Positions 6,223-8,769 of a DNA stretch of 64,000 nt are shown here, piece after piece. The stretch lies in contig OZ024742.1 of assembly GCA_964016885.1 (NCBI GenBank), positions 156,488,001 through 156,552,000 of the forward strand, read 5' to 3'. Within the stretch, counting starts at the first letter, position 1. Each line of letters opens with the position of its first letter. The DNA is from Eledone cirrhosa (taxonomy: Eukaryota). The position numbers and the translations under genes are program-made. The notes under the pieces are model-generated. The model was not told the DNA's origin, did no database searches, and worked only from the letters and a program-made list of their open reading frames with translations.

Positions 6223-6638
6223 TATATATATATATACATATATATATATATATATATATATATATATATATATATATATATATATATATATATATATATA
6301 TATATATATATATATATATATATATATATATATATATATATTATATATATAAAAACAAATAACGAAACGAAATTAAAATTCGTTTCGCTTCTAACTCACT
6401 TTTGTATGACTGACGCTTAAACAATTAAGTTAAAGTGTACATCTACATATGTATACGGAAGTACTAGTATGCATATAAATACACATATGTATACATATGT
6501 ACATGTACCGAGCTTTTCACTAGACACTTTACAGTGAGTGTCCAGCTAGTCTGTATGTAAACACACAGACGAACCGGGTTTTAAAGTCATACGGGTTTTC
6601 AAGGAAACACACTTCCTCTATTCTCCAGAGAGCCAGAC

Positions 6639-6691
6639 AGGAATATTGGACTAGTTGCGATGTTATTACATCTCATCAGCAATATATACCT
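6639..6691 (-). ncRNA. Hammerhead (family A) with GAAA mutated to GCAA
   Basis: Reverse complement: aggtatatattg CTGATGA gatgt aata acatc GCAA ctag TC caatattcct. Confidence 0.8.
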
Positions 6692-7223
6692 ATCTTCTGG
6701 CTTCTCCGGAGAATTGTAAAAGCACATATCGTTATATGCTTTTTCAATGAAAATCAGTAGTGGGCAGACTAATTTGCATAGAACGTGAGTCATTGTACGC
6801 GCCGGTTCAGCGGAAACGATAAAAACAAATAACGAAACGAAATTAAATTTCGTTTCGCTTCTAACTCACTTTTGTATGCTGACGCTTAAACAATTAAGTT
6901 AAAGTGTACATCTACATATGTATACGGAAGTACTAGTATGCATATAACTACACATATGTATACATATGTACATGTACCGAGCTTTTCACTAGACACTTTA
7001 CAGTGAGTGTCCAGCTAGTCTGTATGTAAACACACAGACGAACCGGGTTTTAAAGTCAAACGGGTTTTCAAGGAAACACACGTCCTCTATTCTCCAGAGA
7101 GCCAGACAGGAATATTGGACTAGTTTCGATGTTCTATGCAAATTAGTCTGCCCACTACTGATTTTCATAGAAAAAGCATATAACGATATGTGCTTTTACA
7201 ATTCTCCGGAGAAGCCAGAAGAT

Positions 7224-7276
7224 AGGTATATATTGCTGATGAGATGTAATAACATCGAAACTAGTCCAATATTCCT
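7224..7276 (+). ncRNA. Intact minimal type I hammerhead (family A), predicted GUC cleavage after 7266
   Basis: aggtatatattg CTGATGA gatgt aata acatc GAAA ctag TC caatattcct. Confidence 0.92.
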
Positions 7277-7605
7277 GTCTGGCTCTCTGGGGAATAGAGG
7301 AAGTGTGTTTCCTTGAAAACCCGTATGACTTTAAAACCCGGTTCGTCTGTGTGTTTACATACAGACTAGCTGGACACTCACTGTAAAGTGTCTAGTGAAA
7401 AGCTCGGTACATGTACATATGTATACATATGTGTATTTATATGCATACTAGTACTTCCGTATACATATGTAGATGTACACATTAACTTAATTGTTTAAGC
7501 GTCAGTCATACAAAAGTGAGTTAGAAGCGAAACGAAATTTAATTTCGTTTCGTTATTTGTTTTTATCGTTTCCGCTGAACCGGCGCGTACAATGACTCAC
7601 GCTCT

Positions 7606-7613
7606 ATGCAAAT
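7606..7613 (+). promoter_or_regulatory. Octamer motif ATGCAAAT conserved in family A/B units (candidate snRNA-type distal element)
   Basis: Also at 7136, 9257, 22485, 22630, 23039, 40100 (+) and 6772, 39657, 62275 (-). Confidence 0.5.
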
Positions 7614-7693
7614 TAGTCTGCCCACTACTGATTTTCATTGAAAAAGCATATATCGATATGTGCTTTTACAATTCTCCGGAGAAGCCAGAAGAT

Positions 7694-7746
7694 AGGTATA
7701 TATTGCTGATGAGATGTAATAACATCGAAACTAGTCCAATATTCCT
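7694..7746 (+). ncRNA. Intact minimal type I hammerhead (family A), predicted cleavage after 7736
   Basis: Identical motif exactly 470 nt downstream of the 7224 copy. Confidence 0.92.
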
Positions 7747-8769
7747 GTCTGGCACTCTGGAGAATAGAGGAAGTGTGTTTCCTTGAAAACCCGTATGACT
7801 TTAAAACCCGGTTCGTCTGTGTGTTTACATACAGACTAGCTGGACACTCACTGTAAAGTGTCTAGTGATAAGCTCGGTACATGTACATATGTATACATAT
7901 GTGTATTTATATGCATACTAGTACTTCCGTATACATATGTAGATGTACACTTTAACTTAATTGTTTATATATATATATATATATATATATATATATATAT
8001 ATATATATATATATATATATGTGTGTGTGTGTGCGTGTGTGTGTGTGTTTGTGTATATGTTGGTGAGTGGGGAAGATGGCAGTGCTGAACTACTTTCCAA
8101 TACTTCTACTGAAAGAACGACAGTGATCCTGTTCGAACATTATTATAAGGACTTTCCATACTTACTCATTAACATTTTATGCTTAGCTACGTACCCTAGG
8201 CTTAATAGAGTGTTGCTCAGTTCTTTGAACATATTTGCATGCTATTAGTAGGCGGCGCATAAGTCCTAATATAAGAGTATTATTTAATGCATAAACTGCA
8301 AGTATAATCATGTGTATACTCTTCGCATATCTACTTAATAATTCAGCCATTAACAGAGATGATTGCTCAAGTACAAGTTCTGAAATATTGATATGCCTGA
8401 ATCAGATGATCTTCATTTACTTTTGCTGAACTTCAGAGATTCTATAGTTTTGTAGAAGCGTTGATTTAATTTCGTCTCGAATAACCACTAAACCTATTAG
8501 TCCAAACTTCTCAGAGCTTTTGAGTATGAAAGCCTTATGTTTGCTGTGACGTGCTTAGGTGTTGTTTGGGTCATGGTGGCATGTTGAGACTGGTCGGATT
8601 CATGTTGCTTGGCCTTCTATCCAGATCTTCACAACCCTTTCAAACCCAGCTTGTTGTAAGACCCGGGGAAAGAACTGAAGAAACATGGATCCCCTTGTGA
8701 CTCAGGATCCTCAGAATTACCATAATTACCGGATATGCTATGCTGGTGACAGTGAAAATGGTGGTGACG

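Follow-up and report, generated by a model that had tools for sequence, protein, structure and literature searches.

Non-LTR retrozymes have already been described from metazoans (Cervera and de la Pena 2020, PMC7229834; Li, Clavereau and Pollet 2026, bioRxiv 10.64898/2026.07.22.740005). They are non-coding tandem units of a few hundred bases with low GC content, one type I hammerhead ribozyme per unit, thousands of dispersed copies and Penelope-like elements (PLEs) alongside, and the repeat family presented here, family A, resembles them in all of these respects, its unit of 470 nt being slightly over the 150-450 bp given in PMC7229834. Retrozyme circles have been demonstrated for coral, mussel and axolotl; for family A they are a prediction. 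In Xenopus, 1 of 9 retrozymes cleaved in vitro; the same study (10.64898/2026.07.22.740005) puts retrozyme tandems down to local amplification and, in the sections consulted, samples no molluscs. As for cephalopods, the consulted part of the Octopus vulgaris repeat annotation makes no mention of hammerheads, and that of the squid genome paper gives a count of 235 hammerheads without analysis. A literature search, which left Dfam and Repbase aside, found no description of family A.

In common with family A, the EN+ PLEs (Neptune/Nematis, Poseidon, Naiad) form partial tandems with an inverted copy that is truncated at its 5' end, carry a tail on one side only and favour (TA)n (PMC8557442, PMC3846280). 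Frangieh et al. (PMC11167929) purified a PLE protein, predicted to be dimeric, and reported that in AT-rich DNA it cuts both strands and extends both of them, initiating at two internal positions of the RNA which delimit the tail. Family A appears to share this pattern of start sites and of strand use. In vitro, the anole PLE could do without hammerhead cleavage. Family A differs from these elements in having no ORF, in its tail of ~70 nt (~56 nt in the sister family B) compared with 30-40, and in pairing its start sites one per DNA end, where the in vitro data in the consulted part of PMC11167929 show no strand difference for the PLE. Unlike family A, Naiads lack canonical hammerheads, as far as the consulted sections of PMC8557442, PMC3846280 and PMC11167929 describe them. 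The minimal hammerheads (min-HHR) of PLE pLTRs have, like those of family A, a palindromic stem III that requires a dimer, but family A has the canonical metazoan type I build (PMC4209133); circular templates for longer-than-unit copying by PLE enzymes were proposed in that same paper. The inverted copies and tails of PLEs and the role of retrozyme circles as templates are open points in PMC8557442, PMC7229834 and PMC11167929.

By sequence criteria, family A is a metazoan non-LTR retrozyme and belongs to a known class; its value is mechanistic. Head-to-head arms, paired staggered ends and (TA)n targeting are all present in family A and are not described for retrozymes in the consulted text of PMC7229834 or 10.64898/2026.07.22.740005, the words "inverted" and "microsatellite" having 0 occurrences in that of the former.

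Structure of the family A locus

The window, a stretch of 64,000 nt of Eledone cirrhosa DNA (contig OZ024742.1, positions 156,488,001 to 156,552,000), contains a family A locus made of two multi-unit arms in opposite orientation, joined 5' to 5' inside (TA)n. A left (TA)n target run (6220-6351) is followed by a minus-strand arm of 1.67 units (6349-7133), which extends from monomer position 455 to a long (L) end at 300, monomer positions being numbered from the cleavage site (7267 = 1). Beyond a head-to-head junction with 1-3 nt of microhomology (7131-7133) lies a plus-strand arm of 1.78 units (7131-7967), which runs from near monomer position 337 to a short (S) end at 231 and abuts the right (TA)n target run (7966-8020). 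The arms end at two staggered points ~70 nt apart. This head-to-head, staggered-end, (TA)n-targeted build is the most informative feature of the locus, is absent from the first-pass annotation and ties family A to Penelope-like machinery.

Two intact type I hammerheads lie on the plus arm at 7224-7276 (core 7236-7266, predicted cut after 7266) and 7694-7746 (core 7706-7736, predicted cut after 7736), and between the two cuts a 470-nt monomer is predicted (7267-7736, plus strand) that is strongly folded (z = -10.1). The first-pass annotation had described two identical hammerheads with these cuts on the plus strand, and the cores at 7236 and 7706 are indeed 470 nt apart and have the same sequence, CTGATGAGATGTAATAACATCGAAACTAGTC. 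It had further described the locus as tandem 470-nt units, each with an intact hammerhead. The repeat spacing stands, but a plain tandem is not what is found, since the arms join head-to-head at 7131-7133; nor is every hammerhead intact. One minus-strand core (6649-6679) has GCAA in place of GAAA and is predicted to be inactive (HH9 30.5 bits), and the other (7118-7133) is cut off by the junction with only its 3' half left, so that two of the four hammerhead positions at the locus are intact. Of the features that define a non-LTR retrozyme, at least two consecutive intact type I hammerheads are therefore found in the plus arm and not in the minus arm, and a dispersed multi-copy family with GC below 50% is found in family A as a whole, the monomer having 37%. 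The window locus has no ORF of at least 120 codons, and the element no RT/GIY-YIG ORF.

Between the two recurrent 3' ends lies a "tail" segment (monomer 232-300; 7498-7566, plus strand) which includes a hairpin at 7526-7554 and is the least variable part of the unit (0.010 vs. 0.038). The octamer ATGCAAAT (7606-7613, plus strand) is also present in most family B copies and may be a promoter element, although it is dispensable in one spreading variant. A second family A insertion, of another subfamily and 88% identical, occupies 61850-62366 on the minus strand, with its L end in (TA)n, a core at 62152-62182 and then a short inverted stub. Its stem II is changed from GATGT/ACATC to GTTGT/ACAAC, as had been noted before.

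Hammerhead motif and fold

The core pattern CTGATGA...GAAACTAGTC occurs on the plus strand at 7236 and 7706, and the cleavage triplets end at 7266 and 7736. The family A hammerhead has a stem I of 6 bp with a distal helix, a stem II of 5 bp and a stem III of 2 bp within the palindrome ACUAGU; all core nucleotides and three stems are present, and every stem is able to form. The earlier label of minimal hammerhead is not retained: a min-HHR as defined in PMC4209133 has the core nucleotides only, without helix III and loop 3, and the family A motif, which has a palindromic stem III of 2 bp, counts by that definition as a type I hammerhead of the canonical metazoan build. Rfam model HH9 matches in the window with 34-39 bits (E 3e-6 to 8e-5) against a gathering score of 52, and an Rfam gathering scan gave no match in the window above the threshold of any family, those of the hammerhead clan CL00010 included. 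The miRNA matches of the Rfam scan in the window were dismissed as TA-rich hairpin noise.

A double hammerhead is estimated at -21.0 kcal/mol, compared with -16.0 kcal/mol for two monomers without stem III. When 10 hammerheads of families A and B are aligned, paired cells make up 94.4%, compared with 31-51% in a control with slid partners, and both partners change in 6 of 16 pairs; the structure was drawn from these same sequences and its covariation reflects few independent events. A consensus fold of 26 family A monomers has 7 compensatory pairs among 144, and the monomer folds more strongly on the plus strand (-154 vs. -125 kcal/mol). The stem II change of the distant copy had been taken for a compensatory change that indicates selection on structure. 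The pair change is present, but it marks two subfamilies and therefore counts as about one evolutionary event. The broader reading of the first-pass annotation, a retrozyme with a dimer-type hammerhead, is backed by its anatomy, its copy number, its covariation with family B and the traces that an RNA stage has left in the genome.

Copy number and the sister family B

Exact matches to the family A core number 9,338 genome-wide (0 for the reversed control), of which 9,301 carry one of the two compensatory forms of stem II (4,087 and 5,214). With the sister family B included, 40,412 cores were found (20 in the control), which leaves ~31,000 for family B by subtraction of A. Family B is ~66% identical to family A and has the same layout, with units of 424-490 nt. 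It follows the two-end rule described below for A, and its regions in the window are 9089-9677, 10584-10963, 18946-19446, 21917-23440 and 39340-40365; the one at 18946-19446 is a two-arm head-to-head insertion with a long end at 277 and a short end at 221, and further family B cores lie at 9345, 10647, 22068, 22710 and 23147 on the plus strand and at 39576 on the minus strand.

Several family A subfamilies, with copies 99-100% identical, have spread independently of one another. Five loci (L150, L192, L197, L200 and L207) share, at 100% identity, a variant whose octamer has three A>G changes; the triple destroys the octamer, and an apparently edited copy has therefore founded a sub-lineage. 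The same variant weakens the case for the octamer as an essential promoter. We presume a likeness between the octamer and the snRNA promoter of newt satellite 2, an analogy not found in the literature searched.

Paired ends of head-to-head insertions

A set of 93 family A insertions was drawn from best matches and core listings on contig C1, some of them chosen for having two arms or several units; the tally leaves out L091 and L029 (multi-piece) and L093 (a duplicate of L087), and the ends of 11 insertions were entered by hand. Two arms are present in 63 insertions and are head-to-head in 63/63, which gives family A the inverted 5'-truncated copy at the 5' end that is typical of PLEs. In unselected core listings, opposite-strand core pairs within 1 kb run minus-then-plus in 24/24 cases (hand count). 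The ends of the 63 two-arm insertions pair as L+S in 55, S+S in 1 and L+L in 0, with one degraded end in 6 and 1 not fetched, an excess of L+S over independent ends with p about 8e-16; in the subset picked without regard to similarity, L+S is found in 32/37. The tail extension, ~70 nt long, is accordingly at one end only in 55/63, again as in PLEs. Several apparently "one-arm" insertions (L107, L166 and L164) have a second arm of 11-12 nt with an S end, L189 is also L+S, and the family B ends 221 and 277 obey the same pairing rule (L172, L174, L175 and window 18946-19446). Neither the pairing rule nor editing footprints in retrozymes turned up in a literature search that was weak on editing, its results being mostly unrelated ADAR papers.

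The 5' ends of family A insertions are variable and the 3' flanks nearly always (TA)n, which makes any target-site duplication unreadable. One family A copy (L131, 7711-8273) is flanked not by (TA)n but by (ATG)n to its left and (CAT)n to its right, and lies between two inverted copies of another repeat. Junctions have an overlap of 1-8 nt in 18/30. Arms reach ~31 units, in which the unit joins back onto itself and no coding frame is present, and in 25 of the 63 two-arm insertions both arms are longer than one unit, so that the template must have been a circle or a multimer.

In L1 twin priming, priming takes place on both target strands, and an inversion results when the cDNAs are joined through microhomology, the arms covering non-overlapping parts of one linear RNA. 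Family A is similar in its apparent priming on both target strands, its microhomology joins and its inversion, and differs in that its arms have whole units in common and each starts from a fixed internal site. The L+S rule implies that the two priming events are coupled, and we regard coupled priming from both DNA ends as quite probable. Inverted copies, one-end tails and (TA)n targets together form the PLE tail signature; the element is therefore, very probably, a non-autonomous retrozyme mobilised by PLE machinery.

Shared variants and editing marks

Divergence between the arms of an insertion equals that within arms and is far under the median for other loci. Rare variants common to all units of both arms amount to 14 in 11 loci, compared with 1 that is arm-specific (the second arm of L099 was excluded from the variant analysis). 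Under a strict filter, 13 of 24 rare all-unit variants are A>G on the ribozyme strand, and under a loose filter the 56 rare shared changes include 29 A>G and 7 T>C, in 16 and 6 of 93 loci respectively (p = 0.015), while the 251 unit-specific changes are strand-symmetric. At L189, 10 rare A>G and no shared T>C fall within ~120 nt, identical in both full units, and a partial third unit has the same A>G at all 7 positions that it covers. A 5' G is found at 0/14 listed A>G sites, against 26/140 of the monomer A's. ADAR disfavours a 5' G, and the count agrees with this preference.

The general A>G excess was not seen in a replicate of very young loci: with one A>G triple set aside, 2 of the 16 distinct changes shared there are A>G (hand count). 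The replicate loci were chosen within a few changes of their master, and heavily edited copies were therefore left out. The triple, present at five loci, means that shared variants can come from a source locus and not necessarily from one RNA molecule. The L189 cluster is not what a linear multimer with its units edited one by one would give, the alternative being that a single edited unit was duplicated later.

In-phase unit variants are matched across arms at the window locus, L009 and L158, and C2_316 has an alternating variant on both arms; these patterns suggest that some insertions, namely these four, may reflect multimeric templates. Long arms at L133, L137, L170 and L182 contain periodic partial variants and grew by later duplication. 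Pervasive arm-to-arm conversion was ruled out by the count of 5 in-phase shared against 166 unshared unit variants.

Penelope-like elements and the partner question

A PF01541 profile search of the genome returned 10,597 GIY-YIG candidates, of which 150 were scored, and open RT+GIY-YIG frames exist, e.g. at L061 (938 aa stop to stop). Four families, which we label N1-N4, are termed Neptune-type from a CxxxxCxxC motif ahead of the endonuclease; a search with the N1 protein matched PLE-type clusters from several phyla. Insertions of N1-N4 show L+S pairing in (TA)n with tails of ~40-65 nt, and the autonomous-type PLE pairs that follow the L+S rule belong to N1 (L066), N2 (L076) and N4 (L067, L073 and L077). 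Among 50 GIY-YIG loci out of the 10,597 candidates, no PLE similar in sequence to family A was found, only nested A/B copies and no pLTR similarity.

At L159/L255, a family A arm with an L end runs, through a 41-nt family A piece, head-to-head into a young N4 arm that ends at the S end of N4. This chimera is what a single event involving both RNAs would give; a deletion that brought two insertions together would look alike. The N4 tail is ~40 nt long, compared with ~70 nt in A, and N4 is rather unlikely, though it is a candidate, to be the partner PLE of family A. Two other loci are head-to-head with a family A arm, L105 (N3-like, 73% aa) and L022 (a decayed RT, Naiad-like by eye); both are old and were not counted as partner evidence.

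The short end of N4 (L073/L077) and the long end of family B both lie near TTCC(G/A)TTTA, a weak lead for a shared start signal. The pLTRs (3' regions) of L061, L066, L067, L073, L077, L078 and L079 have a hammerhead-like motif in which TTGAAAA or TTGATAA replaces CTGANGA, followed by a stem and GAAA/GCAA-CCGG-TA, conserved across many copies; these are possibly variant or dead ribozymes.

Proposed mechanism and alternative explanations

We consider it rather likely that family A is a non-autonomous Penelope-type retroelement (non-LTR retrozyme) that moves as follows. Tandem arms would be transcribed, and neighbouring hammerheads would come together at the ACUAGU palindrome, forming a double hammerhead that frees a 470-nt monomer, which would be ligated to a circle; a lone monomer could not close stem III and should hence be stable (both points following from the anatomy, PMC4209133 and PMC7229834). 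Some RNAs appear to undergo A-to-I editing, the footprint of which is seen in the genome, the enzyme being presumably ADAR. The RT/GIY-YIG protein of an autonomous PLE, suggested by the matching architecture and by PMC11167929, would then bind the conserved tail and cut both strands in (TA)n, and one DNA end would prime at ~300 and the other at ~226-232, as the paired ends of the insertions indicate. Each RT would run for more than one unit, as the arm lengths record, most simply around a circle, and stop at random, whereupon the two cDNAs would join by the short microhomology seen at the junctions to give a head-to-head insertion. Some long arms would lengthen later by local duplication, of which the periodic variants are the trace. 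Within this scheme, we lean towards a monomeric circle as the usual template. More tentative, and a little short of an even chance in our estimate, is the proposal in its most specific form, that an RT-endonuclease dimer primes both cut strands, at one fixed site each, on one circular RNA and rolls around it in parallel, so that identical ADAR edits are left in each unit of either arm.

A PLE might instead prime doubly on an uncleaved linear multimer, the hammerhead and circles being incidental to insertion. Unprocessed RNA was the dominant substrate of a PLE in vitro (PMC11167929), and the in-phase or alternating unit variants on both arms of the window locus, L009, L158 and C2_316 would be expected from such a template, but dimeric circles would explain the alternating variants too, and the scarcity of in-phase shared among unshared unit variants, the recurrence of one and the same 10-site A>G cluster from unit to unit of L189, the near-identity of units over ~20 repeats at L150 (d = 0.0004) and the ~40,400 cores kept intact genome-wide all speak against it, so that we find the linear multimer unlikely. 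Much less likely still is a reading of the units as 5'-truncated pLTR ends of an autonomous PLE, with no self-standing element. Head-to-head pLTR-only stumps of N1 and N2 do occur in the window, and retrozymes are related to pLTRs in Xenopus (10.64898/2026.07.22.740005). Against this, the unit is self-closing in the long arms without a coding frame, the A subfamilies have spread on their own, and none of the family A arms runs on, with its orientation unchanged, into sequence that matches the seven PLE proteins tested, neighbouring matches being head-to-head or separate.

Fold-back or self-priming on the first cDNA or on antisense RNA, proposed in PMC3846280, would account for the head-to-head inversion, and short palindromes abound in the unit. 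A fold-back copy, however, cannot exceed its template, and the S arm is longer than the L arm minus 69 in 30/55 insertions (835 vs. 786 at the window locus), so that fold-back copying of the inverted arm is rejected on arm lengths and the two DNA ends must have been primed separately. Arm lengths are moreover uncorrelated (rho -0.09), and the junctions are mostly short overlaps with no hairpin loops; the probability left to fold-back is very small. We assign an equally slight one to a satellite formed at the DNA level by unequal exchange or DNA circles, with the hammerhead as a relic, or to an assembly fold-back artefact. Local duplication is seen in long arrays, as a satellite would have it, but the 3' ends are fixed and staggered, the 5' ends variable and the targets (TA)n, the A>G clusters are strand-specific, and the plus strand folds more strongly; the arms also differ by 1.5% and have different ends.

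If dual priming on one circle is true, it would explain the one-end PLE tail, the head-to-head inversion and the tandem form of retrozymes in one step, and would be in vivo evidence for ribozyme-made circles as templates of retrotransposition. Thanks to the near-strict pairing of start sites and to the editing marks, both the circular-template model and the mechanism of PLE integration can be put to the test. Short and young, the family offers, with ~9,300 cores in A and ~31,000 in B, thousands of natural insertion products that follow an almost strict long/short-end rule. It also gives a defined 470-nt substrate with two predicted start sites for reconstitution, and the editing marks are usable as single-molecule tags in a computational test.

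Other elements in the window

Head-to-head pLTR stumps of N2 at 1730-2150 follow a (TA)n run; the pair has a short end and a long end, a minimal hammerhead-like core is present in each stump, and another N2 pLTR stump copy lies near 55751-56025. A decayed N1 PLE on the minus strand (40432-46908 and 47536-48180), with an inverted pLTR at 40432-41097, is interrupted by a DDE transposase fragment (44572-45420). A third hammerhead family, with a long stem II and a TGCGCA palindrome, is head-to-head near (TA)n at 2530-3070 (cores at 2631, minus strand, and 2891, plus strand) and is also present in L066 and L077; additional hammerhead families were seen in L063, L066, L070 and L077. Directly to the left of the family A target run is a tandem element of ~610 nt (5359-6222; 84% between copies), a piece of which adjoins a family A arm in L091. 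The window further contains a 430-nt imperfect palindrome (9688-10116; 78%), in which no hammerhead was found, a transposase-like frame with no Pfam match (50814-51377) and a broken RT-type LINE on the minus strand (29357-31433) with an RVT_1 match.
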